Shown here: positions 9,347 to 46,364 of the stretch, in pieces
Layout of the letters: every line of letters begins with the position of its first letter
Position numbering within the stretch: the stretch's first letter is position 1
Assembly: GCA_949289575.1 (NCBI GenBank)
Contig: CASEOG010000002.1
Location: 160,254 to 224,253, forward strand
Direction of reading: 5' to 3'
Length of the DNA: 64,000 nt
Origin: an uncultured Spirochaetales bacterium
GTDB lineage: Bacteria; Spirochaetota; Spirochaetia; JAFGXN01
Translations under genes and position numbers: made by a program
The notes under the pieces: model-generated
The model's input: the letters and a program-made list of their open reading frames with translations, nothing else
What the model was told of the DNA's origin: nothing
Database searches by the model: none

Positions 9347-12300
9347 ATGATGAGAAAATATCTGTATATTGCGATGATTTCTTTTCTGTGGATTTCCTGT
9401 ACCGACGCCGTTTCCTTTTTTTATAACGGAGAGAAAGCGGAAGCATCGGTTTATGAAATAACAATCGGGAAAGATACCGTTTTTAATATTTTTTCCTTTC
9501 TGAGTGCCCGCGGAGAGAACGAAGAAGATTTGACGGGAGAAATCGAACTGGTATCCGGATATCTGGATACCACTGTGGCGGGACGTTATTGTCTGGAATA
9601 CCGAATCGACTATCGGAGAACGGTGAAAGAAATCGGGATTATTGTTTATGTCAGAGACGACCCGGTTTATCCGACTTCCGGTTTGCCGGTAATCGAACTG
9701 GAAGGAGAGAACCCTCTGTCGGTTCCGCTTTCTGTCGATGTTTTTACCGATCCGGGGGCATCTGTCATTGATTCCAACGGACGCCGGATGCCGGATGAAT
9801 ATCTTTCGAAAAATGTCTGTTTTTTTGATTCGGCAATGAACCGGTTTACCGATACCGGAGGAATTCCGATGTCGGGGCCGGGGGTTTACCGCATCGATTA
9901 TAACGGGTTCGATTATTCGGGAAAAGCGGCAAAAACCGTAACGAGATTTGTTTTTTACGGAAATTCTTCCACCCGCCGTGTTGCGATTACGCTCAACCGG
10001 TATCCGACTGGGGAGCTTGTCGATCCGAATGTTTCCGTGACGGCCGGGACTTTGTGTATCGAGGCCGGTGCCGGCAAGGTTTATCGCGAATGCGGCGGTT
10101 CGGTATCGTTTATCGAAAACGGGAGCGTTGTCAGAACCGAAACCTGGAGTGACGATATCGGCGTCATTCCGGGACTTCGAAGAACGGAAATCCCTTCTTT
10201 TGCCGTTCCCGGTCGGCATTCCGTTTATTACTGGTTTTCGGAAGACGGAAGTGTCGGTTCCGTAGAAGCGTTTATCGAAAGACCTCTTCTGCTGGTTGAT
10301 CGGCAGGCTCCCGTTTTGACTTTGGGCAACCAGAATGCGAATGCTCCTGCCGTTACACCCGAATCGTGGGAAGAGGCACTGCGGCTTTCCGAAGAGGATT
10401 CTTTCTCCCTGAATGCCGGACAGAATTTTACGGAACCTGTTTCGGCGGCGGGACTTTTCCCGAAAATAGAGGATAACTGCGATAAAGATCTTTTGTGGAG
10501 CCGGGTGCAAACCTCTTTTTTTCGTTACAACGGCACGAAAAACAGCATCGAATCGATTTCCGCTTTTCCGGATCCCTCAGCCAGACGCGGTGATATTTAT
10601 TTTATCCGCTACTCGGCTGCCGACCGCAGCGGTAATTTGCGGGTTTGCTGGCGGAAGATTCTCATGAAATCCGGTTCTCCCGCCAATATCCGGTTCTGTT
10701 ACGGAGATAAAGAGACCAAAACAGTTGTTTACGGATATTATTCGAATTCGGGAGAAACTTCGTTCCTTCCGGATGTATACGGTACCGACGGTAGCGGCAA
10801 CCGTTTACCGGAGAGTGAGTACAGGATAGATATCGGGGGAGTCGGAAGCGGCGGCGCCGCTGTATCGGTGCCCTATTCCGGCGGAGAAAATTTGGAAAAA
10901 AGACTTTCCGAAGCCGGATTGATAGATCTGAAGACCCCGGGGCAGTATTCTCTTGATTATACGATTACGTATGACGGCCTGAAAACCGTTGTCAAACGGT
11001 ATGTAACCGTTTTTAATTATGACGGTATTTCGGTATTGTCGGAGACCAGCAACGACAATCTCTCCCAGGCAAAATATACGCTTCGGTGGCAAAACACTCA
11101 AAAAGAAAAAGGTTATTCCAATACCATGTTTCTTTACCGTTCGAATCACCGTTCGAACGGCGTTTGGGAACGTGTCGGTACGGTGAACGAAAACGAATAT
11201 ATTTCGGTTCCTTACGGAATCTCTTTTTACAGGCTGGTTCCGGCCAGAGTCGGAGATGAGGGGGAGGTCTCGGCCCGCCCCGAAGATGCTCCCGAGTCGG
11301 TGATGATACAGTTGTGCCGGCCTTTCCCCGCAGTCGGAGGCTTTCAGGCTTCGAATCGGACTTATACCGATCGGATAGAACTGCAATGGAGTGTGTGCGA
11401 CAATGCCGATTACTACAGGGTTTACTGCGGTAGGGATTCTTCGTCTTTCCCGCTGTCCGACGATAAACTCCTTGCGGAGATTCGGAACGGCAATACTTAC
11501 ACCGTTCGGGAGAGTGCCTCGTTTTCGGCCGCATATACATGGTATTTCCAGATTCAGGCTGTTGCCGAAAAGAGTCTTCACGGATGGAAAACCGTTTCGA
11601 CCGATACGAAAGGAAACCTGATTGTTTCGACGGATACGGCCAAAGCGAAGGGAATGAGAGAATTGACGGACTCCGAATGGCTGCGTGAGGTATTAATCGA
11701 AATCGGAGCTTTGCAGAGCCGGTTTAACCTCGGGGACGGTTCTCTCGATGCGGGAGGAAAATTTTATATCGACGGCGGCAGTTCGGGAGCTTTTTACTAC
11801 CGTATTCGCAACGAGAGCTGGCCGGAAAATGACTGGCTGACAAAAAACCGGTCGACATTGCTGGATTATTTCCATTTCAACAATGACGGCAGAAGACTGA
11901 AACTATCGGGCGGAATTGCCTATTTATATCTTTTTACAAAGAGCAAAAACGATTATTATGTGGGAATTACGGCGAAGGCCGATTCCGCATTGTATCCCGA
12001 CGGTTTAAAGCGGCAGGCTCCGCTGACCGTTTCGGGTGATTATCCGGGAACGGTCGATATTCACGGACTTCTTGATGACTGTTGGAATCGGGCCTGCAGT
12101 CACAGTGATACGACGGTCAAAAACTGCGTCGGCGAGAGTCTCTCTTACAGAGGAAACAGGTGGCTCGGCAACTGTGACGGGCGAAGCTCCGTCGGACACG
12201 GATGCCCCAGTTACCGGTTCTCCGAATCGGCATGGCGGAACGTTCTCGGATTTTACGAAAACGGGAGGGTGACGTTTACGCACCGCGGGCAGATGTTTCT

Positions 12301-12355
12301 TTATACCCGCGACGGCGGTCCGGAAAAAACGCACGCCGCTTTCAGGGTTCCGTAA
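9347..12355 (+). CDS. Large surface lipoprotein with Ig-like (DUF5011-like) and fibronectin type III-like domains
   Basis: Lipobox-like ...FLWISC. PVIELEGENPL...FTDPGAS.ID Ig-like unit, APVLTLG unit, and FN3-like ASNRTYTDRIELQW....ADYYRVY. Confidence 0.7.
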   Translation: MMRKYLYIAMISFLWISCTDAVSFFYNGEKAEASVYEITIGKDTVFNIFSFLSARGENEEDLTGEIELVSGYLDTTVAGRYCLEYRIDYRRTVKEIGIIVYVRDDPVYPTSGLPVIELEGENPLSVPLSVDVFTDPGASVIDSNGRRMPDEYLSKNVCFFDSAMNRFTDTGGIPMSGPGVYRIDYNGFDYSGKAAKTVTRFVFYGNSSTRRVAITLNRYPTGELVDPNVSVTAGTLCIEAGAGKVYRECGGSVSFIENGSVVRTETWSDDIGVIPGLRRTEIPSFAVPGRHSVYYWFSEDGSVGSVEAFIERPLLLVDRQAPVLTLGNQNANAPAVTPESWEEALRLSEEDSFSLNAGQNFTEPVSAAGLFPKIEDNCDKDLLWSRVQTSFFRYNGTKNSIESISAFPDPSARRGDIYFIRYSAADRSGNLRVCWRKILMKSGSPANIRFCYGDKETKTVVYGYYSNSGETSFLPDVYGTDGSGNRLPESEYRIDIGGVGSGGAAVSVPYSGGENLEKRLSEAGLIDLKTPGQYSLDYTITYDGLKTVVKRYVTVFNYDGISVLSETSNDNLSQAKYTLRWQNTQKEKGYSNTMFLYRSNHRSNGVWERVGTVNENEYISVPYGISFYRLVPARVGDEGEVSARPEDAPESVMIQLCRPFPAVGGFQASNRTYTDRIELQWSVCDNADYYRVYCGRDSSSFPLSDDKLLAEIRNGNTYTVRESASFSAAYTWYFQIQAVAEKSLHGWKTVSTDTKGNLIVSTDTAKAKGMRELTDSEWLREVLIEIGALQSRFNLGDGSLDAGGKFYIDGGSSGAFYYRIRNESWPENDWLTKNRSTLLDYFHFNNDGRRLKLSGGIAYLYLFTKSKNDYYVGITAKADSALYPDGLKRQAPLTVSGDYPGTVDIHGLLDDCWNRACSHSDTTVKNCVGESLSYRGNRWLGNCDGRSSVGHGCPSYRFSESAWRNVLGFYENGRVTFTHRGQMFLYTRDGGPEKTHAAFRVP

Positions 12356-12432
12356 AAAAATGATATTAATTTTTTGCTAATAACATTGACAAACAGCCCG
12401 ATCCATGTGATGATAAGGCTAAGGAGACAGTT

Positions 12433-13626
12433 ATGAAAAAATTATTGGTTTTAATTGCGGTTTTTTCAATGATCGGCTGTTCGGTCGATTATGTCAAAAG
12501 CGAAGGCACATTAAACAAAGATACTGTTGTTGTTAAAAGCAGCGAAGTATTGGCGTTTGATGCGACAGCCGGAGAACTGAAGCTGGCAAACGATTACACG
12601 GGCGCCAGGTATATCATTGTCGAGCACGGTGAAAACATGCCCGGCGGACGTCTGCTCGCGGTTGATTCCGTCAGCAACGGTGTATATCGTGTAAAGGATA
12701 CTCAGCTGGCCAACGCCGTTAAGGACCTGAAATTTAAATCGACATATCAGCTGAAAAAAGAGGATATCGTTTCTGCGAAACCTCTTGCCCGCGGTGTTAC
12801 AATCGATCCCGCCGATCCGTTTGTAATTGATTTGGGAACAAAGCGGATTGCCGACTTTGTCGAAGATTCCGAATCGGCTTATGATGCCGGTCTTGATTTG
12901 GAAGGGAAGCTGTATATCGATCCTTATATCAATTTCGATATCGATATTACCAATTTCGAACTTCAGAAATTCATCATCGAATTGGAAGCCTCTTTGAAGG
13001 CGGAAATGTCTCTTGCATTGAATGCGTCTGTGAGCTACGGTGCTTATGTACCTCTGTTCGAGTATAATTATAATGTAATCACAGTTATGGCCGGTCCCGT
13101 GCCTATCATTTTCCAACCGATTATCGAAATCGGTCTCGATGCTAATTTTAATGCCAGCGTTCGGGCGACTTTTACGATTTCCGAAACAATTTCTTTCGGT
13201 GCCGGTGCTGTTTACGAAAATGAAGCATGGACAACAAAGAAATACTTTGATGCCGGATTACCTCAGGTTGAACCGATTTTCGTGAATGCCAAAGCCAATG
13301 CGGGTGTCGGCATTAACGAAAAAATCGGTATCATGCTCTACGGAGTGTTAGGAGCTAATTTGCAGGCTCGTGAATTCCTGTCGGCCGACTATACGGGAAA
13401 TGCCGAAATCGATTTCGCGCAGGGAGCTGTGACATCGGATCAGAATCTGACTCTCAAATTCGGTATGGGGGTCGGTGTGAATATTCGTATCAGTGCATTC
13501 AGCATTATTGATAAAGAATTTCAGGTCTGGGGTCAGGACTTGACATTCGCTCAGATGGATTGGAATTGCCGTCTTGACTCGGAACCTGTCTGGTCCGGTT
13601 TGATTGTGGACGCAATTAATAAATAA
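12433..13626 (+). CDS. Beta-strand-rich lipoprotein of unknown function
   Basis: MKKLLVLIAVFSMIGC lipobox, AAGGAG SD, perfect TTGACA at 12386-12391 and its own terminator. Confidence 0.7.
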   Translation: MKKLLVLIAVFSMIGCSVDYVKSEGTLNKDTVVVKSSEVLAFDATAGELKLANDYTGARYIIVEHGENMPGGRLLAVDSVSNGVYRVKDTQLANAVKDLKFKSTYQLKKEDIVSAKPLARGVTIDPADPFVIDLGTKRIADFVEDSESAYDAGLDLEGKLYIDPYINFDIDITNFELQKFIIELEASLKAEMSLALNASVSYGAYVPLFEYNYNVITVMAGPVPIIFQPIIEIGLDANFNASVRATFTISETISFGAGAVYENEAWTTKKYFDAGLPQVEPIFVNAKANAGVGINEKIGIMLYGVLGANLQAREFLSADYTGNAEIDFAQGAVTSDQNLTLKFGMGVGVNIRISAFSIIDKEFQVWGQDLTFAQMDWNCRLDSEPVWSGLIVDAINK

Positions 13627-35625: not shown

Positions 35626-38082
35626 TTATCGTTCCGAAAAAAGAATTTCCGGATTGCCGTTGAGCCGGACCGATTCGCCCCGCTGCAGTTCGATATCGAT
35701 TGTTTTGCCGGCGTAGCGAACCGTTAACGGTTTTCCGGCATCGGAACGGATAACGGCTTCCGTCAGTTGCCCCTGTTCCCACGATGCGGATACGGTAAAC
35801 CCGCCGGCCGCTTTAAAACCGGAAAAGCGGCCGTTTGCGATAGCCGAAGGCAGCGCCGGCAGCAGATGAATCTCTCCGTTACCGCTTTGCAGCAGCCATT
35901 CGATAAAGGCGGAGACAAGTCCGAAGTTACCGTCAATCTGAAACGGAGGGTGGGCATCCCACAAATTTTTATAAAAGCCGCCGCCGGAAAGGGCAATTTC
36001 CGACCGCGAAGTCGGCTTGACAAAATTCCTCAGCAGCCGGTACGAGTGGTCGCCGTTCCCCAGACGGGCATGGAAATTCATTTTCCAGGCCATCGACCAC
36101 CCGGTGCCCTTATCGCCTCGGGCTTTTAGCGTAACGGCAGCCGCTTTTGCCAACTCGGGTGTCGTAATCGGAGAAATTTGAGTTCCCGGATGTAGGGCGT
36201 ACAAATGAGAAATATGGCGGTGTTTGTTTGTCTTCGAATCGATGTCTTTGGCCCACTCCTGGAGCTGTCCCCACCGTCCGATTTTCGGTTGCGGAATCCG
36301 TTCCAAACAGGATCGCCAATCCTCCCGCTCCCGCTCGTCGGTTTCGAGAATTTCGGAAGCGGAAACGACGGTTTTCAGGATTTCGTGTGCGATTTGGAAA
36401 TCCATTGACGCGCCGGCCGACACGGTGCCGTGCTCGGGAGAATAAGAAGGAGAGGAGATCAGATGACCGGTTTCGTCTTCAATCAGCCAATCGACCCAAA
36501 ATTGCGCGGCGCCTTTGATCGTCGGATAGATCTCTTTCAGAAAAGCGGTATCCTGCGTATACAGGTAGTGATCCCATAAATGGCGGCAGAGCCAGGCTGC
36601 CGCTCCGGGAAAATGGCCCCAGACAATTCCCCAGCCGGGCTGCGTTTCCCCAAAAGGGTTGTTGCTTGTATGGCAGACCCATCCGTCGGTGCCGTAATAG
36701 TGACGGGCGGTGATTTCTCCCGGTTGAACCAGTGTCGGAATGTAGTCGAGCAGCGGTTTGTGGACCTCTCCCAGATCGAGAGGCTCGGCGGGCCAGTAGG
36801 CCATTTGAAGGTTGATATTGGTATGGTAGTCGCTGCTCCACGGCGGATCGGTGTAGGCATTCCACAATCCCTGTAAGTTGAGCGGCAGAGAGCCTTCACG
36901 GGAAGAGGAAATCAGCAGATATTTTCCGTAATTAAAAAGCAGTTCCAAAAACAGCGGGTCTCTGCTGACGGCAAAACGGCGCAAGCGTTTATCGGTCGGA
37001 ATATCCGTTTTCGAATCGGATCGGGTCGAAAAACGGAGAGTTGTTCTGTCAAAGAGATTCGTATAGTCGCGCAGGTGATTCTCGAGTATTCGGTCGATCC
37101 CTTTTCGGCAGGCTTCACGGGCCAATTTGTCGGCCGTTTTGAGAGGTGACCGACGGCTTTTGTACAAAGGGTATTCGTTGATGTAGTCTGTTGCCGCGGA
37201 GAAAAAGAGAACGGCACTGTCGGCGCCCCGAACAGTCACCGATTCGCCGTCGGCAGCGATCGTACCGTTGACGGCTTTTATGTAAATGACGGCGGCGTAT
37301 TTCATGCCGTTGTTGTTCAGGATTCCTTCGACTGTCATTCGTGCCGTCCGGCTGTCGATACAGACTGTCGATACCGTTTCCCTGCGTCCTCTCCCGACGT
37401 TCGGATTTAAGCAGGGGAATTCGTTGCGATATCGGTCGTAATAGTTGTTCGTATCCGTTACCGGTTCCCACTGCAATCCGAATGTGATTTTCCGTTCGGT
37501 GTCTGCCGTCAGTGCGAAGAGCATTGCTTTATCGGGGTAAGAGGCAAATGCCGTTCGGGTATAATGTGTCCCGTCCGAGCTGAAAGTAACGGAATGAAGA
37601 GCGACGGATGTATCCAATTTTCGTATATAATTTCGGGGGTTTTCTCCGAGTTCGGGGAAATGAAGATCGAGGGTTCCGAGAGGCTGATATGCTCCTTTTC
37701 CTGTTCCGTTACCCGTCAGATACTTTTGCGAAAGACGATGAGCTTCTTCGTAGCGGCCTTCGGCGACGGCTTTTCTGATTTCCGGTAAGGCAAAGGCGCC
37801 TTTACCGGGATCGGGTTTGCCGTACCCGGTCCATTCTCCCGGCCCTCCTTCCCAGAGTGTCTTTTCGTTCAGAAGAATCCGTTCATGGGAAACTCCTCCG
37901 AAAAGAGAAGCGCCCATCCATCCGTTTCCGATCGGAAGAGCTTCCTGTTCCCAATTTTGTGCCGGTTTTTTGTAGAAAAGGACTTTATCGGCCGATTCGG
38001 CTGCAGAGGCATGGGGAGAAAAGAAAAGCGTTCCTGTGAGAATCGTCCCTATGAGAATGACCGGAGAGAGCGAAGAGTTCAT
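35626..38082 (-). CDS. GH95 alpha-1,2-L-fucosidase
   Basis: Signal peptide; WEQEALPIGNG, YGKYLLISSSR, NLQGLWN, SDYHTNINLQMAYW, SPEHG, HRHISHLY, GWSMAWK and HPPFQIDGNFG motifs. Confidence 0.93.
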   Translation of the reverse strand: MNSSLSPVILIGTILTGTLFFSPHASAAESADKVLFYKKPAQNWEQEALPIGNGWMGASLFGGVSHERILLNEKTLWEGGPGEWTGYGKPDPGKGAFALPEIRKAVAEGRYEEAHRLSQKYLTGNGTGKGAYQPLGTLDLHFPELGENPRNYIRKLDTSVALHSVTFSSDGTHYTRTAFASYPDKAMLFALTADTERKITFGLQWEPVTDTNNYYDRYRNEFPCLNPNVGRGRRETVSTVCIDSRTARMTVEGILNNNGMKYAAVIYIKAVNGTIAADGESVTVRGADSAVLFFSAATDYINEYPLYKSRRSPLKTADKLAREACRKGIDRILENHLRDYTNLFDRTTLRFSTRSDSKTDIPTDKRLRRFAVSRDPLFLELLFNYGKYLLISSSREGSLPLNLQGLWNAYTDPPWSSDYHTNINLQMAYWPAEPLDLGEVHKPLLDYIPTLVQPGEITARHYYGTDGWVCHTSNNPFGETQPGWGIVWGHFPGAAAWLCRHLWDHYLYTQDTAFLKEIYPTIKGAAQFWVDWLIEDETGHLISSPSYSPEHGTVSAGASMDFQIAHEILKTVVSASEILETDEREREDWRSCLERIPQPKIGRWGQLQEWAKDIDSKTNKHRHISHLYALHPGTQISPITTPELAKAAAVTLKARGDKGTGWSMAWKMNFHARLGNGDHSYRLLRNFVKPTSRSEIALSGGGFYKNLWDAHPPFQIDGNFGLVSAFIEWLLQSGNGEIHLLPALPSAIANGRFSGFKAAGGFTVSASWEQGQLTEAVIRSDAGKPLTVRYAGKTIDIELQRGESVRLNGNPEILFSER

Positions 38083-39941
38083 CGGGTTTCGATTTCTTCA
38101 ATCCAAAATGCCGTCATCCAGGTCTGTTTCGGTGAATTTTTGACCGCTTTGATTTCGATAACGTTGACTCCTTTTTTCAGCTGTATACGGACCGGTTGCC
38201 GGCGCCAGTAGAGTTCTTCGGCTGTCCACGGGACCTCCTGTACCGGGTGATCCCATGTTTGGACAATGTCGTGGCGGTAGGCGCCCGGCTGCTGCCACTG
38301 CGGCGGTGCGACGGGTTCTCCGTTTAACGTAATCGTACTGCCGTAGCGGTCCCATTTGCCCTTCGGAGGAACTCCGCCGTAAAAACGGTGCGCACGCAGC
38401 GGGACGTCGAAACCGGCATGCAGCAGAACGTCCCGGTCCGTATCGCTGACGATTTCCGTCCGGCAGAAAGCGGCCTGCCGTTTTTTTGCGTTCGGGAAGT
38501 AGCTGTCCAGGAGCAGCGAGACACCCCGTCCCTCCACCGTTTCACCGGACGGTCCCGTCAGTTGCCAAACCGTGTCGCACTGTTTTTCGTAAATGAATTC
38601 GGCGCCGACATCCCCGAAATAAAGATCTTTATGCGCAATCAGTCTGTTTTCGTATTCGGAAAAGGCTCGGAAGGCGGCCGTGCCTTTCGGGGGAATCATT
38701 TGTCTGTATTTTCGGCTTCCCGTCGGATTGCCGTTCCAAAAGATTTCGGCCGCCGTGATTCCCGCTGCGTATACCGGATTATTCAGTAAAACCTCGCGCT
38801 GGTCGGCAACAGCCACATCGTTCCAGTTACAGAGAATCGCACCCATGTCCGATTCCGATCCTTCGGGAACACCGCACGGCTGTTTGAAGTAGACAGCCTG
38901 AACGGCATTAAAATAATCAAAAGTATTTGTATAGAGACCGCTCGAATCGATATTCCGGTAACCGGGCTGTTTGGCGTTCTCAAACCATGTGTGCTCGATC
39001 ATATCGTTCGATGAGGGGATTCCGGGGTTCCAAACCATTCCGGTTCGGCCGTTTTCCTTCAGTTTTGCCTCGACCAGAGGCATGAATTCTTTGATAACGG
39101 GAGCCCGAACTTCGTCGGCACCGATATGAATAATCGGAGCCGTTTCGACCGGGATTTCATCGCAGAATTCCTGAATCAGATCGAGACAGATTTGGGTTCC
39201 TTTTTGCGAACCCATCGAAAAACCGAATGCTTTCGGAAAGAATTTGCTGTGTCCCGGCATATCCAGTTCCACAATCACCCGGACGCCCAGATCGTTGCTG
39301 AAAGAAATCAGATCACGGATTTCGTCGTAAGTATAAAATTCGGTACTGCGGTACATCGTTTTCGGATCGTTGAGAACCGGATATTTTTTACATTCGACCC
39401 GCCAGCCCGGATTGTCGGTGATGTGCCAGTGGAATGTGTTGAGTTTGTAAGCGGCCAGACGGCGGATTTGTTCTTTCAGATAGGGAATCGTCTGAAAATT
39501 TCTTCCGGTATCATGGTGAAAGCCGCGGACAGAAAAGGCGGGAAAATCTTCTATTATGCAGGCCGGCACCGGTTTTCGTCCGTTTTCGCTCAGTTGATTC
39601 AGTGTCAAACCCGCATAGCGGAGGCCCCGTTCGTCATTGGCCCTGATTTCGACGATACCGTTTTCGATTTTCAGAGAATAAGCTTCCGGTGAGCGGCTGA
39701 AAGCAAGCGGTTCCCTCTTTTTGATGATTTGACACTGTTCGAGTGGCCATTCGCCTTCTTTCCAGACAACATGACGCGGAAACGGAATCAGTGCACGGGG
39801 TGCCGCTTCGGCGGCCGGTAAATCAATCGGCGGAACATATTCTTTTGTTTCCGTATCCGATACCGTCGGCGGAATATCGACAGAAAGGCACCCGATAAAA
39901 AATAATCCCGTAAACAGTAATTTGCAAATTGTTTGACTCAT
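38079..39941 (-). CDS. GH20 beta-N-acetylhexosaminidase lipoprotein
   Basis: Lipobox LFFIGC; RGFHHDTGRNF, FHWHITDNPGWR, ELDMPGH and the catalytic HIGADEV. ATGA overlap with the GH95 start. Confidence 0.92.
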   Translation of the reverse strand: MSQTICKLLFTGLFFIGCLSVDIPPTVSDTETKEYVPPIDLPAAEAAPRALIPFPRHVVWKEGEWPLEQCQIIKKREPLAFSRSPEAYSLKIENGIVEIRANDERGLRYAGLTLNQLSENGRKPVPACIIEDFPAFSVRGFHHDTGRNFQTIPYLKEQIRRLAAYKLNTFHWHITDNPGWRVECKKYPVLNDPKTMYRSTEFYTYDEIRDLISFSNDLGVRVIVELDMPGHSKFFPKAFGFSMGSQKGTQICLDLIQEFCDEIPVETAPIIHIGADEVRAPVIKEFMPLVEAKLKENGRTGMVWNPGIPSSNDMIEHTWFENAKQPGYRNIDSSGLYTNTFDYFNAVQAVYFKQPCGVPEGSESDMGAILCNWNDVAVADQREVLLNNPVYAAGITAAEIFWNGNPTGSRKYRQMIPPKGTAAFRAFSEYENRLIAHKDLYFGDVGAEFIYEKQCDTVWQLTGPSGETVEGRGVSLLLDSYFPNAKKRQAAFCRTEIVSDTDRDVLLHAGFDVPLRAHRFYGGVPPKGKWDRYGSTITLNGEPVAPPQWQQPGAYRHDIVQTWDHPVQEVPWTAEELYWRRQPVRIQLKKGVNVIEIKAVKNSPKQTWMTAFWIEEIETR

Positions 39942-39976
39942 ACATCCCATTATACGGAAATTTTTCGTAAATACAA
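39942..39976 (-). promoter_or_regulatory. Promoter of GH20-GH95, probably leaderless
   Basis: TTGTAT (39971-39976), 16 bp spacer, TATAAT (39949-39954), 7 nt, ATG at 39941. Confidence 0.65.
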
Positions 39977-40976: not shown

Positions 40977-41001
40977 AAAAAAGGAGCGCCGAGGGCGCTC
41001 C
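40977..41001 (-). terminator. Intrinsic terminator ending the SCP2/aminotransferase/transketolase/VOC operon
   Basis: GGAGCGCC-ctc-GGCGCTCC followed by T6 on the minus strand. Confidence 0.85.
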
Positions 41002-41007
41002 CGAGTT

Positions 41008-41523
41008 TTACTTGTAATAGTCTTTGAATTTTCCTTTCCGCATGAAGAAGCCGATCAATCTGCTCATGTATTTAATCGGAAAATAGTTGGCGTGCAAATC
41101 CATCAGTTCGATCAGGTTCCCGTCCGGATCGCGAAAGAAAAACCAGTCGGCTCCGTCGTCTCTTTGAGGTTCGTTTAAAATTTCGACATCGGATCGCTCG
41201 CTCAATTTCTTATACCATTTCCCGATATTTTTGACATCGAGCGTAAAATGATGTGTTCCCGGACGGTTCCAGCAGTGTTCGAACGGAGCGGTTTCCGAAA
41301 ATTCGAAAATTTCGATTAACCCGCCTCTCGGCCCGAGCAAAAATCCGAATCGGACGGACATTCCGTCGGGGAGGTTGTACAGTTTTTTCATGCGGCTCAT
41401 TCGTTCCGCATCCAGACCGCCTTTCGAAATCAGAGAAAATCCGAAAACATCGCGATACCATCGGACGGCTTTGTTGAAATCTTTGACGGTTATGCCGACA
41501 TGGTTGAATCCTCTGGCTTTCAT
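41008..41523 (-). CDS. VOC (glyoxalase/methylmalonyl-CoA epimerase) family metalloenzyme
   Basis: FNHVGITV, LIEIFE, GTHHFTL and FRDPDGNLIEL motifs; probable metal ligands H8, E71, H92 and E139. Confidence 0.92.
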   Translation of the reverse strand: MKARGFNHVGITVKDFNKAVRWYRDVFGFSLISKGGLDAERMSRMKKLYNLPDGMSVRFGFLLGPRGGLIEIFEFSETAPFEHCWNRPGTHHFTLDVKNIGKWYKKLSERSDVEILNEPQRDDGADWFFFRDPDGNLIELMDLHANYFPIKYMSRLIGFFMRKGKFKDYYK

Positions 41524-41532
41524 TGAGTCCTC

Positions 41533-42339
41533 CTATTTTACCAGGCTTCCCACAAGCAGCATGTAGTCGCCCAGCTGGGCACCGAATTCGGGTCCGCCGA
41601 CCATAACCAGTCTTTGCTGAATGGTCGCCTCGATCATGTCGTCCGTTTCCTGCAGAATTCCCAATGCGCTTTTCGGCGAGTCGAATTTCATTGTAAAGAA
41701 GGGCATGCTTTTTGTGTATTGACCTCTTCGGGCTTTTGTCCGGCCTTTTTTGACACGGAGATAAGCCGACAGCTCCGGTTCTCCTTCGACAGCCCATGCG
41801 TAAATCCGGTCGGGACTGAGAGCCGCCCACGCTGCCACATCGGGATGTCCCAGTTTGTTCAGAATACTGATTCCGCGTGACAGAAGATAAAACATACACT
41901 TGACCAGCAGCTTTTGGTCATCCTCTTTTTTGGGAGCTGTTTTGGCGCCGAGAAGTCCCGACATTGTCAAGAGCAGCTTCATAAAATTCAGAAAAACGGA
42001 GAAATGTTTCAAAGCGCCTTTCATCTTCGGAAGCGGAAATAATTTTCCTTTGAAGAAGCCGCACAGATGCTCGGGTGATTTAAATTCCAGTTCGACATCG
42101 GGAGTCTCTTCGGAAACCCCTTTTTTCGGTGTACAGGTGCCGTTTTCGAAAATATAGTGAATCGCCATCTTTCCGTCGGGAGTTTTGCAGCTGATTTGGG
42201 CGACCGCTTTTTTCGCCTGCCAGCCCTTCTGCAATGCCGGACGGTCTTCCAGAATGGTTTTCAGAAGAGGGCAAACGGCATAGAGGAAGAGATGGGTCGA
42301 AAAAAGCGTTTCCTGTTCTTTTGTAATCGCAGTTGCCAT
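41533..42339 (-). CDS. Hypothetical protein with tandem SCP2-like (lipid-binding) domains
   Basis: F..G...........PDVELEFKSPEH...F.GK..P.P pattern and a second similar half; visible paralogy with 45525-46280. Confidence 0.55.
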   Translation of the reverse strand: MATAITKEQETLFSTHLFLYAVCPLLKTILEDRPALQKGWQAKKAVAQISCKTPDGKMAIHYIFENGTCTPKKGVSEETPDVELEFKSPEHLCGFFKGKLFPLPKMKGALKHFSVFLNFMKLLLTMSGLLGAKTAPKKEDDQKLLVKCMFYLLSRGISILNKLGHPDVAAWAALSPDRIYAWAVEGEPELSAYLRVKKGRTKARRGQYTKSMPFFTMKFDSPKSALGILQETDDMIEATIQQRLVMVGGPEFGAQLGDYMLLVGSLVK

Positions 42340-42348
42340 TCCGTCCTC

Positions 42349-43356
42349 CTAGAAATCGTCGTCGTCCCAGTCGTTGTCTTCTTCGATCTGAACGCCCATG
42401 ATTTCGTGAGCTGTTTTGACAATACCGTTCGAGTCGTATCCGTATTCGGACATCAAATCCTCGTGGAGTCCGATAATGGAGTAGGTGTCGGGAACTCCCA
42501 ATTTTCTCATGACACAGGCTTTACCCAGTTCGGTGACGGTTTCGGCTACGGCGCTTCCCAATCCGCCGATAATGTTATGGTCTTCGACGGTAATGATGCG
42601 TTTTGTATCGATGACCGCTTTTTCAATGGCTTCCTTATCGATCGGTTTAATTGTATGCATGTTCAAAACACGGGCACGGATACCGTCGGCTTCCAGTTCT
42701 TTGGCGGCCGCAACGGCGCGGGCAACACAGGCGCCGCAGGCAATGATGGTCAGGTCGGTTCCCTCTGCCATCTGTACCGCTTTCCCCAATTGAAATCCGT
42801 AATCGGTACTTTTGTAGATCGGCATATCGTAACCGCGGTTGATACGGATGTAAAAAGGACCGTCGTTTTCGTAGGCGGCAATAACCGCATTGGCCGTTTC
42901 CATTCCGTCGGCCGGAACAATCACGCGGCAGTTGGCCATCGTTCTCATGATGCCGATATCTTCCGTACAGTGGTGCGTGCTGCCTGCCTGACCGAACGAG
43001 AGACCGGCGTGGGTCGCAATGACCTTTACATTCATATTCTGATAGCAGATGTCGGTGTGAAACTGATCCAGGGCTCTCATCGAGGCGAAAATCGCAAAAG
43101 TGGAAGCAAACGGAATCAGACCCGCTTCGGCCATTCCCGCTGCAACTCCCATCATATTCTGTTCGGCAATACCGAGGTTGAAAATCCGGTCGGGGAAGTC
43201 TTTTGCCAAAGCTCCGATTTTGGTCGATTTGGCAAGGTCGGCAGACAGACCGACAACTCTTTTATCCTGTGCCGCCAAATCGCAAAGCACTTTTCCGTAA
43301 TATTCCGCGGTCGACATTTTCTCCGCGTCAAGCATTGTATAGTTTAAGTTAGCCAT
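42349..43356 (-). CDS. Transketolase family C-terminal subunit (pyrimidine-binding plus C domain)
   Basis: SADLAKST, GIAEQNM, THAG...G..GSTH..ED, PFYIRINR, HTIKPID and VEDHNIIGGLGSAVAE motifs. Confidence 0.95.
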   Translation of the reverse strand: MANLNYTMLDAEKMSTAEYYGKVLCDLAAQDKRVVGLSADLAKSTKIGALAKDFPDRIFNLGIAEQNMMGVAAGMAEAGLIPFASTFAIFASMRALDQFHTDICYQNMNVKVIATHAGLSFGQAGSTHHCTEDIGIMRTMANCRVIVPADGMETANAVIAAYENDGPFYIRINRGYDMPIYKSTDYGFQLGKAVQMAEGTDLTIIACGACVARAVAAAKELEADGIRARVLNMHTIKPIDKEAIEKAVIDTKRIITVEDHNIIGGLGSAVAETVTELGKACVMRKLGVPDTYSIIGLHEDLMSEYGYDSNGIVKTAHEIMGVQIEEDNDWDDDDF

Positions 43357-43366
43357 CCGTTTCCTC

Positions 43367-44218
43367 CTAGTTTTTCAATCGGCTGTCGTGATATTCGTCA
43401 ATCTGCTTTTTGTACCGTTCGCCGGTTTCGGCATTGACGCTGGCGTAGTGATACTGGTAGTTGTCCTGAATATCGGCAACTCCGCAGCCTTTAAATGTAT
43501 CGGCGATAATGGCTACCGGTTTGTCTTTTGCGGCAAGAGCGTATTCGATCGCATCGGCAAGCGCATACATATCGTGTCCGTCGACGACTTTGACATCAAA
43601 TCCGAAGGCGGTCCATTTATCCGCAAACGGTTCCAGGTTCATGACATCTTCGGTGCGTCCGTCAATCATACATTTGTTGCGGTCGATGATTGTAATGACG
43701 TTTGTGGCTTTGTAATGGGCAATTGCCATGGCAGCTTCCCATACCGATCCTTCGTCGCATTCTCCGTCTCCGAGCAGACAGTAGGTTTTAAAGTTTTTCT
43801 CCTGCAGACGTCCGCCGAGAGCCATGCCGAGGGCAATCGAAAGCCCGTGTCCGAGCGAACCTGTGGAGGCATCCAATCCGACCACTTTGTTTCTGTCCAG
43901 ATGCATACCCAATTTGCTGAAAGTGTGGTTGTAGGTTTTCAGCATTTCTTTATCGAAGAATCCTTTGTCGGCCAGAACCGGGGCAAAGCCGACGCCGATA
44001 TGTCCCTTGCTGAGGATGAACCGGTCTCTCTCTTCCCATCGGGGATTGGCGACATCGATATTCATGTATTTGTAATACAGAATTGTCAGAATATCGGTTG
44101 CGCTCAGGGCGCCGCCGATATGGCCTCCGTTTGCCCACATAACCGTGTCGATTGTCAGTTTTCGTAATTCCCTTGCTTTGTTTTCGAGAGCAAGGTATTC
44201 TTCTTTAGTCAGTCCCAT
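43367..44218 (-). CDS. Transketolase family N-terminal (ThDP-binding) subunit
   Basis: GGHIGG, RDRFILSKGH, TGSLGHGLS and the ThDP motif GDGE-x-EGSVWEA...DRN. Confidence 0.95.
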   Translation of the reverse strand: MGLTKEEYLALENKARELRKLTIDTVMWANGGHIGGALSATDILTILYYKYMNIDVANPRWEERDRFILSKGHIGVGFAPVLADKGFFDKEMLKTYNHTFSKLGMHLDRNKVVGLDASTGSLGHGLSIALGMALGGRLQEKNFKTYCLLGDGECDEGSVWEAAMAIAHYKATNVITIIDRNKCMIDGRTEDVMNLEPFADKWTAFGFDVKVVDGHDMYALADAIEYALAAKDKPVAIIADTFKGCGVADIQDNYQYHYASVNAETGERYKKQIDEYHDSRLKN

Positions 44219-44251: not shown

Positions 44252-45514
44252 TCAGTTAACTTTGTCGGGATGCAGTTTGGCGACAGCCGCAAACGCTTCG
44301 TCCGCCACTTCGATCGTTTTTTTGATGTCGGCATCCGTCAGAGAGGCGTTCATGAAGTGGTTGTGGTGGCTGACCAGAAAAACTCCGCGTTTGACACACT
44401 CTGCACAGAAATCCTGCATCATTTCCGTTGTCGGGTCGTTGGTAATCCGCATGAAAGGCATCGATTCCACACCCGAGAACTTCATATCGATTCCGTGAGC
44501 ATGGCCGGCGTCGATCATGCCGGAAGCGAATTTTTTTCCTTTCTCGATCAGCAGGTTGGCAACATCGATTCTTTTCATTTCGTTGATACAGGCAATGGCG
44601 GCGGCCATCGGAACGGCACTCGACCAGTAACTGCCTGTAAAAAAGACGGAGCCGGCAGCCGATTTCAGGCTGTCGATACCGACGACGGCCGAAATATTGT
44701 AGCCGTTTGCCAATGCTTTGCAGTAGCAGGCCAGATCGGGTTTGAATCCGAAATATTTGGCGCTTCCTTCGATGTGCAGCCGGAATCCGCAACGGACATC
44801 GTCCACAATTAATACGATTCCGTTTCGGGTACAAATTTCGCGGATTTTCTGCCAGTATCCCGGAACGGGGAGTGCGTTATCCGCAAAAATCCGGTGATCG
44901 TACGGTGTGGCAATAAAACAGGCAATCGAATCTTTGTTTTCGGCAACCGTTTTTTCGAAAGCTTCGGCGTCGTTCCAGGGAATTACGATTACATCCTGTA
45001 AATCGGCTTTTGTAATACCGTTGGCACCTTCGGCCTGTGTCCAGGGGACCACTCCGTGGTAACCGCCCTGAACCCGGACAATTTTGCTCCGGCCGGTTGC
45101 GGCTTTGGCTGTCAGAACAGCAAACGAGGTGGCATCGCCTCCGTTTTTCAGAAAGAAAGCCCAATCGGCTATTTCGATTGTGTCGCACAGCAACTCGGCC
45201 AAATCGACCTGAACCCGTGCCGGCAGGGCCATACAGTTTCCTTTTTTCAGCTGCTCATTGGCCGCTTTATCGACAATTTCATTGTTGTATCCCAAAATAT
45301 TCGGTCCGTAAGCGCACATGTAGTCGATATATTTGTTTCCGTCGATGCTCCAGAAGTAGGAGTCTTTCACACGATCGACATAAAAAGGGAAGTCGCTTGC
45401 GGGAATAAACTGTGACTGAACAGGCCCCAGATGGCCGGGAATTCCTGTCGGGATATATTTGACTGCTTTTTTAAACAGTTCCAGTGATTTTGTGTTGGAA
45501 TAAAACTCTTTCAT
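44252..45514 (-). CDS. Class III PLP aminotransferase, FumI/GSA-aminomutase-like
   Basis: YIDYMCAYGPNILGY, ADWAFFLKNGGDATS, YHG..PW, ATPYDH, VDDVRCGFR, CKALANGY (PLP lysine) and FTGSYWSSAVPMAAA motifs. Confidence 0.9.
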   Translation of the reverse strand: MKEFYSNTKSLELFKKAVKYIPTGIPGHLGPVQSQFIPASDFPFYVDRVKDSYFWSIDGNKYIDYMCAYGPNILGYNNEIVDKAANEQLKKGNCMALPARVQVDLAELLCDTIEIADWAFFLKNGGDATSFAVLTAKAATGRSKIVRVQGGYHGVVPWTQAEGANGITKADLQDVIVIPWNDAEAFEKTVAENKDSIACFIATPYDHRIFADNALPVPGYWQKIREICTRNGIVLIVDDVRCGFRLHIEGSAKYFGFKPDLACYCKALANGYNISAVVGIDSLKSAAGSVFFTGSYWSSAVPMAAAIACINEMKRIDVANLLIEKGKKFASGMIDAGHAHGIDMKFSGVESMPFMRITNDPTTEMMQDFCAECVKRGVFLVSHHNHFMNASLTDADIKKTIEVADEAFAAVAKLHPDKVN

Positions 45515-45524
45515 GCCGTTCTCC

Positions 45525-46280
45525 TTATGCTAAATATCCGCCGACCAGTTCCAGAATCGGATTCATATACTCGACCATCGGAATGAATCCCTTCATCAGC
45601 AGATCTCCCGTTGCCAGAGCAACGTAAGTATCTGTTTTTCTGGAAAGAATGCCCTGTGCCGCTCCGAGGTCCTTAAAAACAAGTCGTGCATTCGATTTTT
45701 CGGCAAAACCTTTGTATGCCGTCAGATGTCCGTTTTTGACATCGATATACAGACCGATTTCCGTGCCGATTGAAGCCTGTATGATGCCGTTCGGAATGTG
45801 TTTCGCGTTTTGAATTCCTTTCGGGTCGTGGTTTCCGATTTGAGCCAGTGACGAAAAGGCGGTGTAGAATGTCATTTCGGTATTCATGGCAAAATAACCG
45901 GGGTCCGACAAAAGACTCTCTGTCGGTTTCAGGTAATACGACAACCGGTCCGCCAGTTTTGTAAACGGTCCCGTCAGAAAACCGATACGGGTCAGTCCTT
46001 TGAGCGGAATGGGATTGGCTTTCCCGTCAATCATTTTATTGAAATGTTCGGGAGAAGTAAAAAATAAGAGAATGTGTGACGGATGCGAACCCTCTTTCAT
46101 TTCCGCCTGTCCGTTTTTAAAAGACAGGTTTCCGTTCGGTCCGTTTTTGACCTTGAACTGGATGGAGAGATTCTTCCCCGCAACGATTTTTCTGCACTCT
46201 TCGTCGCGATTAACCAGGAACTCGATGTTACGCAAGACGCCGAAAAGATTGCAGTATGCCAGTACTTTCTGGTTTTTCAT
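45525..46280 (-). CDS. Hypothetical protein with tandem SCP2-like (lipid-binding) domains
   Basis: QFKVKNG...LSFKNG......G......LFFTSPEHFNKMIDGKANPIPLKG, and a second half ending VALATGDLLMKG; GAGGAG SD. Confidence 0.6.
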   Translation of the reverse strand: MKNQKVLAYCNLFGVLRNIEFLVNRDEECRKIVAGKNLSIQFKVKNGPNGNLSFKNGQAEMKEGSHPSHILLFFTSPEHFNKMIDGKANPIPLKGLTRIGFLTGPFTKLADRLSYYLKPTESLLSDPGYFAMNTEMTFYTAFSSLAQIGNHDPKGIQNAKHIPNGIIQASIGTEIGLYIDVKNGHLTAYKGFAEKSNARLVFKDLGAAQGILSRKTDTYVALATGDLLMKGFIPMVEYMNPILELVGGYLA

Positions 46281-46334: not shown

Positions 46335-46364
46335 ATTATACAACGAAAATGCCGAAAAGTACAA
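46335..46364 (-). promoter_or_regulatory. sigma70 promoter of the six-gene operon
   Basis: TTGTAC (46359-46364), 18 bp spacer, TATAAT (46335-46340). Confidence 0.7.

Follow-up and report, generated by a model that had tools for sequence, protein, structure and literature searches.

In the transketolase (TK) of Escherichia coli, TktA, residue D469 contacts a hydroxyl group of the sugar, and the ligands of the phosphate are R358, S385, H461 and R520 (PMC11387542). Variants of this enzyme at these positions, such as D469T and S385Y/D469T/R520Q, shift its preference from phosphorylated or hydroxylated aldehydes to aliphatic or aromatic, non-polar ones (PMC5073344, PMC7661550), and a natural split TK with an equivalent of D469L has been reported (PMC13663882). 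A split TK-like enzyme is also known from Clostridium scindens, where DesAB is a steroid-17,20-desmolase that cleaves the ketol side chain of steroids (PMC3735941). Here we describe a split TK-like enzyme encoded in a 64,000-nt stretch (the window) of the genome of an uncultured Spirochaetales bacterium (GCA_949289575.1, contig CASEOG010000002.1, 160,254-224,253), in which the equivalents of both D469 and R358 are alanine and whose genes lie in a cassette with genes for an aminotransferase and two SCP2-fold proteins. Neither the cassette nor the pathway proposed for it appeared in full-text searches of the literature. The enzyme is a new natural TK variant in an undescribed, widespread lipid-amine cassette.

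The gene that carries both replacements encodes the C-terminal subunit (TK-C), whose features are given here in positions of the window.

42349..43356, minus strand: TK-like C-terminal subunit (Pyr and C domains), 335 aa; Pfam Transket_pyr 6e-41 and Transketolase_C 8e-31; PDB 6yaj, E 9e-83.
43306..43308, minus strand: Ala17 codon gcg, equivalent to R358 of E. coli TktA and R318 of human TK; phosphate ligand lost.
42985..42990, minus strand: Gln123-Ala124 codons, equivalent to E468-D469; ligand of the acceptor 2-hydroxyl (C4 hydroxyl of the donor) lost; Ala124 is gca at 42987-42985.
42970..42975, minus strand: His128-His129 codons; H473 is kept and Q474 is replaced by a family-invariant His.
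42835..42837, minus strand: Arg174 codon, equivalent to R520 and kept, within a remodelled loop R-I-N-R-G-F/Y-D; Arg in 83 of 83 family members.
42349..42393, minus strand: acidic C-terminal tail QIEEDNDWDDDDF, family-specific, with a near-invariant Trp; canonical split TKs have no such tail.

The translation of TK-C (open reading frame (ORF) 43356..42349, minus strand) contains ...EKMSTAEYYGKVL... and ...THAGLSFGQAGSTHHCTED... The first altered motif is encoded by aaa atg tcg acc gcg gaa tat tac gga (K-M-S-T-A-E-Y-Y-G) and the second by ggt cag gca ggc agc acg cac cac (G-Q-A-G-S-T-H-H), the latter standing where a canonical TK has GEDGxxHQ. A sequence-only reading of this DNA had reported S-T-A-E-Y-Y-G with an Ala codon at 43306-43308 and G-Q-A-G-S-T-H-H with an Ala codon at 42985-42987, and both the DNA and the translation bear it out. 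Long antisense ORFs over the TK genes, for example 42157-43347 and 43388-44167 on the plus strand, have no family support and are shadow ORFs.

The closest solved relative of TK-C was the C chain of the split TK of Carboxydothermus hydrogenoformans (PDB 6yaj; phmmer E 9e-83, 46% identity, 304 columns). In this alignment IATREAYG of 6yaj faces MSTAEYYG of TK-C and HAGLTVGEDGASHQ of 6yaj pairs with HAGLSFGQAGSTHH of TK-C, both without gaps around the motif; phmmer also paired human TK R318 with A17 and D424 with A124. We checked the E. coli TktA sequence against PDB 2r5n and aligned it with the family using MAFFT, which mapped R358 to A17, S385 to S44, E411 to E65, H461 to H116, L466 to F121, E468 to Q123, D469 to A124, H473 to H128, Q474 to H129 and R520 to R174. 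In the N-terminal subunit (TK-N), H26 corresponds to H33, H66 to H73, H100 to H106 and H261 to H257. The 6yaj, human and TktA alignments concur that the two alanines occupy the D469 and R358 positions, the equivalence on which the sequence-only reading depended.

By these correspondences, TK-C has Ala124 in place of the canonical Asp at D469, and its phosphate-binding set is incomplete, with Ala17 for R358. The other three of the four E. coli phosphate ligands, S385, H461 and R520 (S44, H116 and R174), are invariant in the family. The enzyme is also not a single chain of about 620 aa with the usual Phe or Tyr at the H100 position, being split into 283 and 335 aa with H106 kept.

The residues required for thiamine diphosphate (ThDP) chemistry were retained. 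All TktA ThDP and catalytic residues (H26, H66, H100, D155, N185, H261, E411, H461 and H473) are kept across the two subunits, in agreement with the earlier observation that the ThDP motif, catalytic Glu and histidines appeared intact. The GDG...N motif of the TK superfamily is present in TK-N, its D151 and N181 invariant in 78 family members, and the cofactor-activating Glu is E65 (GIAEQ) of TK-C, invariant in 83. The catalytic and donor histidines H33, H73, H106 and H257 of TK-N and H128 of TK-C are likewise invariant in the family. Because the cofactor and catalytic residues do not vary, the enzyme should be active, and the split enzyme is predicted to be catalytically competent. H100 is a TK-type donor-pocket residue that is Phe or Tyr in DXS (PMC13663882), and its retention fits a hydroxymethyl-ketone donor such as 2-oxo-sphinganine rather than a methyl ketone.

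Canonical split TKs (6yaj/6yak) share with this enzyme the two-gene N plus C layout and the ThDP and catalytic residues; the C chains are 46% identical, and the N chain matches at E 1e-73. They carry IATRE and GEDGxSHQ, whereas the cassette enzyme carries STAE and GQAGSTHH, and it differs from them further by L466 to F, P101 to L, G262 to Y, the remodelled R520 loop and the acidic, Trp-bearing tail. Its gene is linked to aminotransferase and SCP2 genes, not to sugar metabolism.

The replacements are a family trait. A word-based search of 5.8 billion proteins identified 120 TK-C relatives at 68% identity or more, nearly all with GQAG(S/T)THH and STAE. A scan of one genome per species found at least 598 relatives, and the best 80 of these, at 57-96% identity, all read G[QAST]AG[ST]THH. 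We took residue counts over 83 family sequences and compared them with 33 canonical split TKs. At D469 the family has Ala throughout (83 of 83) and the canonical set Asp throughout (33 of 33). At R358, 71 family members have Ala, 7 have Ser and 2 have Thr, which leaves 3 of the 83 with Arg and 80 without. Conservation of GQAG among operon-linked homologs had been named as a check on the sequence-only reading; Ala at D469 is in fact fixed across at least 80 species. The D469 and R358 replacements are beyond chance.

Other positions set the family apart as well. F121, Q123, A124, H129 and I295 of TK-C are invariant in the family yet distinct from the 33 canonical enzymes, with Phe at the L466 position and His at the Q474 position in all 83 sequences. 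The loop I172-N173-R174-G175-F/Y176-D177 around the kept Arg is also family-invariant and unlike that of the canonical set, and the C-terminal tail follows the consensus DFExDDxW(D/E)DE(V/F/A), through which the SCP2 proteins or the aminotransferase may dock. Alignment placed several family-specific hydrophobic changes near the active site (L466 to F, Y440 to M/L, N522 to F/Y, P101 to L and G262 to Y), two of which, P101 to L107 and G262 to Y258 in TK-N, adjoin the catalytic H100 and H261. Together these suggest a trend to hydrophobic or aromatic side chains around the substrate channel, with a geometry predicted from the alignment.

Engineered TktA variants at D469, R358, S385 and R520 alter the same positions as the cassette family; the cassette changes, by contrast, are natural and clade-fixed, keep R520 and S385 and come with a dedicated operon. 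In a maximum-likelihood tree the cassette TK-C family formed one clade (Shimodaira-Hasegawa-like approximate likelihood ratio test (SH-aLRT) 96), which falls in a split-TK-like half without the xD..HQ motif, canonical enzymes lying in the other half. Judged from alignment and tree, D469 loss is the mark of a broad, largely unexplored split-TK-like radiation. Many other uncharacterised split-TK-like clades have different replacements of GEDG..HQ, for example GFYGTSHH, GHLGPTHH and GVGGATHH. Of the cassette family itself, we consider it about an even call that TK-C would be part of a split ThDP enzyme whose tight, widespread clade is specialised for a ketol other than a sugar phosphate.

TK-C is the fourth of six minus-strand genes separated by intergenic gaps of 9-33 nt, in the order SCP2, aminotransferase, TK-N, TK-C, SCP2, VOC. 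Upstream of them, our promoter scan listed no minus-strand promoter at 46335-46364. The remaining features of this operon are as follows.

45525..46280, minus strand: tandem SCP2-fold protein 1, 251 aa; Pfam SCP2 9.5e-06; AlphaFold2 mean predicted local distance difference test (pLDDT) 95.4; Foldseek matches to SCP2, UbiJ and an alkylsulfatase SCP2-like domain.
44252..45514, minus strand: class-III aminotransferase, FumI-like, 420 aa; Pfam Aminotran_3; PDB 6hbs, E 4e-90, 38% identity.
43367..44218, minus strand: TK-like N-terminal subunit (PP domain), 283 aa; Pfam Transketolase_N 1e-42; PDB 6yak, E 1e-73; H33, H73, H106 and H257 kept.
41533..42339, minus strand: tandem SCP2-fold protein 2, 268 aa; no Pfam match; AlphaFold2 mean pLDDT 95.7; Foldseek matches to SCP2 folds; a distant paralogue of protein 1.
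41008..41523, minus strand: VOC/glyoxalase-fold metalloenzyme, 171 aa, accessory; Pfam Glyoxalase 5e-22.
40982..41002, minus strand: intrinsic-terminator-like hairpin closing the operon; stem of 9 bp, 7 of them GC, with a run of T after it.

A five-gene core of SCP2, aminotransferase, TK-N, TK-C and SCP2 recurs in nearly all of 80 species loci. Carriers include Spirochaetota and many Clostridia (Acutalibacteraceae, Oscillospiraceae, Ruminococcaceae, Vallitalea, Lutispora, Oceanirhabdus and Brassicibacter), as well as metagenome-assembled genomes (MAGs) labelled Actinomycetota, Hydrogenedentota, Anaeromyxobacteraceae and Flavobacteriaceae; many of the cassette-bearing MAGs were assembled from samples of rumen and of horse, chicken and human gut. 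Accessory genes are more variable: the VOC gene occurs in about 17 of 83 loci, an adjoining TetR regulator in 18 and an enoate-reductase-like flavoenzyme (Oxidored_FMN plus Pyr_redox_2) in 7. Two clostridial examples of the last, at 10335-12602 of locus L004 and 10340-12609 of L003, follow the cassette and are of the 2-enoate or 2,4-dienoyl-CoA reductase type. At the TK-C locus itself, no dehydrogenase or transporter was found among the cassette neighbours. An EEP-fold protein adjoining the cassette in one Anaeromyxobacteraceae MAG was considered as a sphingomyelinase and rejected, with no PDB or NCBIfam support for that assignment. Downstream of the cassette in the window, beyond a CvfB-like gene, the minus strand at 35626-39950 carries genes of the GH95 alpha-L-fucosidase and GH20 beta-hexosaminidase types, glycan-trimming enzymes of a sort that acts on host glycans and glycolipids; any link to the cassette is putative.

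The first alternative to a specialised enzyme is that the cassette encodes the housekeeping TK of the pentose-phosphate pathway with a drifted motif. The source genome (1.95 Mb, 97.8% complete) would seem to invite this explanation, having no other TK: its sole further Transket_pyr protein is a 632-aa DXS, and two close relatives show the same pattern. Transaldolase and phosphoketolase were not found in this genome either, however, and the non-oxidative pentose-phosphate branch as a whole appears to be missing. Elsewhere, 8 of 12 other cassette genomes had further Transket_pyr matches beyond the cassette subunit and a DXS-length frame. In four of five genomes examined these paralogues were canonical split TKs with (I/C/T)ATR(E/D)AYG and GEDGASHQ, and a Treponemataceae genome (G006) has a full-length 669-aa TK beside its cassette. 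The coexistence of canonical TKs indicates that the cassette enzyme is extra and specialised, and the simplest interpretation, with the missing non-oxidative branch, is that it is not a pentose-phosphate TK substitute. The substitutions, which go together with aminotransferase and SCP2 genes, are moreover fixed from one phylum to the next, and they fall at positions important for sugar-phosphate turnover (D469 and R358; PMC11387542). A housekeeping role is thus extremely unlikely. How pentoses are produced or used in the source genome, with no canonical TK, transaldolase or phosphoketolase, is puzzling.

The partner proteins point to a hydrophobic substrate. The nearest solved relative of the aminotransferase was FumI (6hbs; 306 bits, E 4e-90, 38% identity over 407 residues), compared with 162 bits for the best glutamate-1-semialdehyde (GSA) aminomutase, and with its class-III pyridoxal phosphate (PLP) fold it is predicted to be of the FumI type. 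FumI, from the fumonisin-degradation cluster of Sphingopyxis sp. MTA144, acts on hydrolysed fumonisin B1, an analogue of sphinganine, and replaces its 2-amino group by a ketone; the reaction takes pyruvate as amino acceptor and needs no O2 (PMC3136697, PMC2933618). The likeness would extend to the conversion of a sphinganine-like 2-amino-3-ol to a 2-ketone; the FumI substrate, on the other hand, has no C1 hydroxyl, and no TK or SCP2 partner is named for FumI (PMC3136697, PMC2933618).

The two SCP2 proteins share 25% identity (BLASTP E 8e-07). AlphaFold2 models built from the family alignments (mean pLDDT 95.4 and 95.7) gave each two SCP2-type domains, with Foldseek probability 1.00 to SCP2, SCP2L, UbiJ-SCP2 and the SCP2-like domain of SdsA1 and target-normalised TM-scores of 0.5-0.68 per domain; the SdsA1 domain, from an alkylsulfatase, is alkyl-chain-binding. 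A FumI-like aminotransferase combined with tandem SCP2 folds makes the gene context point to a hydrophobic ketol derived from an amino alcohol. In the VOC protein the metal ligands H8, E71, H92 and E139 are invariant in 18 sequences, and its PDB and NCBIfam matches (FosB, glyoxalase I and methylmalonyl-CoA epimerase) are weak ones from which a reaction is not assignable.

Our most likely reading, held with moderate confidence, is that the aminotransferase makes a ketol from a lipid-like 2-amino-1,3-diol and that the TK cleaves this ketol to a non-hydroxylated aldehyde and a two-carbon unit. The two tandem-SCP2 proteins would hold and solubilise a hydrophobic amine akin to a sphingoid base, namely a long-chain 2-amino-1,3-diol, whose C2 amine the FumI-like aminotransferase would convert to a ketone, giving a 1,3-dihydroxy-2-ketone with a ketose head group. 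The ThDP of the TK would then attack C2 and the C2-C3 bond would be cleaved, with release of an aldehyde that lacks a 2-hydroxyl and for which the D469 equivalent is dispensable. The alkyl chain would leave through a channel that R358 formerly closed and that its replacement by Ala opens, lined by the new hydrophobic residues. The dihydroxyethyl-ThDP unit would finally be passed to an acceptor aldehyde or freed as glycolaldehyde. The acceptor might be phosphorylated, which would explain the retention of S385, H461 and R520.

Which compound is the substrate, which way the pathway runs, what becomes of the two-carbon unit and whether the VOC protein has any role are matters that we infer from sequence and gene context, and this basis for the substrate assignment is itself a point against the cleavage of a lipid-like ketol just outlined. 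Several observations add to it. With a purely aliphatic substrate, one would not expect S385, H461 and R520 to be invariant. The cassette has no gene for an aldehyde dehydrogenase or reductase, a ceramidase or a lipid transporter. Natural D-erythro sphingoid bases would give a 3R ketol, and TKs normally take the 3S form. Among the carriers are also free-living anaerobes of marine and sediment habitats (Vallitalea and Oceanirhabdus), and identity to FumI, whose own substrate is a 1-deoxy compound, is only 38%. The sequence-only reading had proposed a non-phosphorylated donor whose leaving aldehyde lacks an alpha-hydroxyl. The loss of D469 and R358 and the lipid-amine context speak for this proposal, but the invariant S385, H461 and R520 make it less likely that the substrate is strictly non-phosphorylated; their retention could be compatible with a phosphorylated acceptor or with a substrate that bears a polar group.

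Sphingoid bases as the specific substrate are a tentative assignment, one that we think more doubtful than the general scheme, and the particular pair of sphinganine and hexadecanal we infer in the same manner. The full pathway, also doubtful but possible, would be a novel cleavage of sphingoid bases without O2 or phosphorylation: sphinganine or sphingosine would pass through a 1,3-dihydroxy-2-ketone to a fatty aldehyde and a two-carbon ketol unit, the latter possibly transferred to triose or pentose phosphate via the S385/H461/R520 site, with an SCP2 shuttle, in a pathway widespread in gut and rumen Clostridia and spirochaetes. The enoate reductase of some loci might reduce a 2-enal derived from sphingosine, which would accord with a catabolic direction. 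The canonical route, by sphingosine kinase and sphingosine-1-phosphate lyase, also cleaves C2-C3 and yields the long-chain aldehyde from C3 onward. It does so by ATP-dependent phosphorylation and a PLP-dependent retro-aldol reaction that releases phosphoethanolamine, whereas the proposed cassette route would use transamination and ThDP and release a two-carbon ketol unit.

The variant loci bear on how lipid-like the amine would be. A basal locus in a Zymogenaceae MAG (L074, 679-11403) contains the TK, an SCP2 protein, TetR, two putrescine-type class-III aminotransferases, two APC permeases and alanine dehydrogenase. This layout is typical of amine catabolism and consistent with the catabolic direction; its aminotransferases and permeases also give hints of soluble amines in some members, which weighs against a lipid-like substrate throughout the family. 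One may thus suppose that the ketol derives from a different amine, small or non-lipid, such as an amino-polyol of the threoninol or serinol type or an aromatic amino-diol, the sole constraint being a leaving aldehyde without a 2-hydroxyl. The replacement of D469 by Ala shows only that the 2-hydroxyl contact is unneeded, and the kept S385, H461 and R520 agree with such substrates. Two tandem SCP2 lipid-carrier proteins in nearly every locus do not, nor do the FumI-like aminotransferase, the hydrophobic residues gained in the active site and the absence of a dedicated transporter from most loci, and we consider a small amine improbable.

The same proteins could in principle work in reverse. As TK and transaminase reactions are both reversible, the TK might join a fatty aldehyde to a two-carbon donor and the aminotransferase might aminate the resulting ketone to a sphingoid-like 2-amino-1,3-diol, without serine palmitoyltransferase; engineered TK-plus-transaminase cascades to 2-amino-1,3-diols are a known biocatalytic route. 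The SCP2 carriers could equally deliver a fatty aldehyde, and in small genomes like that of the source the cassette has no local regulator. It also lacks, however, an enzyme to generate the aldehyde (an acyl-CoA or acyl-ACP reductase) as well as a downstream N-acyltransferase, and the TetR regulators of other loci and the alanine dehydrogenase and permeases of the variant locus look catabolic. To our knowledge, sphingolipids are unreported in these Clostridia or spirochaetes. The nearest characterised aminotransferase, moreover, works by deamination (PMC3136697). Synthesis in place of cleavage is therefore rather unlikely.

DesAB suggests yet another substrate, since the target of this split TK-like enzyme is the side chain of cortisol, with its 17-hydroxy-20-oxo-21-hydroxy pattern (PMC3735941). 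The cassette enzyme might similarly be a desmolase that cleaves the side chain of a steroid or another pre-formed ketol, its aminotransferase serving some other purpose. Like the cassette TK, DesAB is a split TK-like enzyme of gut anaerobes that coexists with housekeeping TKs, and it too is proposed to cleave a non-phosphorylated, lipophilic hydroxymethyl-ketol (PMC3735941). SCP2 folds bind sterols, some loci have enoate-reductase-like genes, and two sister cassettes (L009 and L084) are free of the aminotransferase. That aminotransferase is nevertheless linked in more than 70 of 80 loci, and the carriers include marine and sediment anaerobes with no source of glucocorticoids. The operon partners of DesAB are the 20-hydroxysteroid dehydrogenase DesC and the transporter DesD; no desC- or desD-type gene is present in the cassette, where the TK is linked instead to an aminotransferase, two SCP2 proteins and VOC, so that the operon description sets the two systems apart. 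The leaving groups differ also, DesAB releasing a ketone and the cassette TK, as proposed, an aldehyde. Cleavage of a steroid side chain is very unlikely.

The sister cassettes L009, L084 and L086 consist of TK-N, TK-C and an SCP2-like gene without an adjacent aminotransferase. The R358-equivalent Arg (xxAREIYG) is kept in L084, L086 and the aminotransferase-bearing L062, with Ala still at the D469 position, and L009 keeps STAE.

A TK-family enzyme paired with an aminotransferase is known from anisomycin biosynthesis, where AniP/AniQ likewise combine altered substrate residues with non-phosphorylated substrates (PMC11387542). AniP differs in being a single chain of DXS-like topology that has lost the histidine-rich motif and R520 and acts biosynthetically, on aromatic keto acids, in Streptomyces (PMC11387542). 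The operon of the cassette TK differs from DesAB, AniP/AniQ and engineered TK systems alike.

Whatever the substrate, annotation of these genes as a central-metabolism 'transketolase' should cease. For biocatalysis the clade is a natural template: the D469 and R358 changes that engineers make for aliphatic aldehydes are already in place, and a matched transaminase for the synthesis of 2-amino-1,3-diols goes with them. If the cleavage of sphingoid-type ketols proposed here is true, it would extend TK chemistry from sugar phosphates to the head groups of membrane lipids. A common, unannotated operon of hundreds of species, human-gut Acutalibacteraceae and Oscillospiraceae among them, would take on a function in the turnover of bioactive and antimicrobial sphingoid bases and would constitute a sink for host, dietary and Bacteroidota sphingolipids, with a bearing on host ceramide pools and possibly on the detoxification of sphinganine-analogue mycotoxins.

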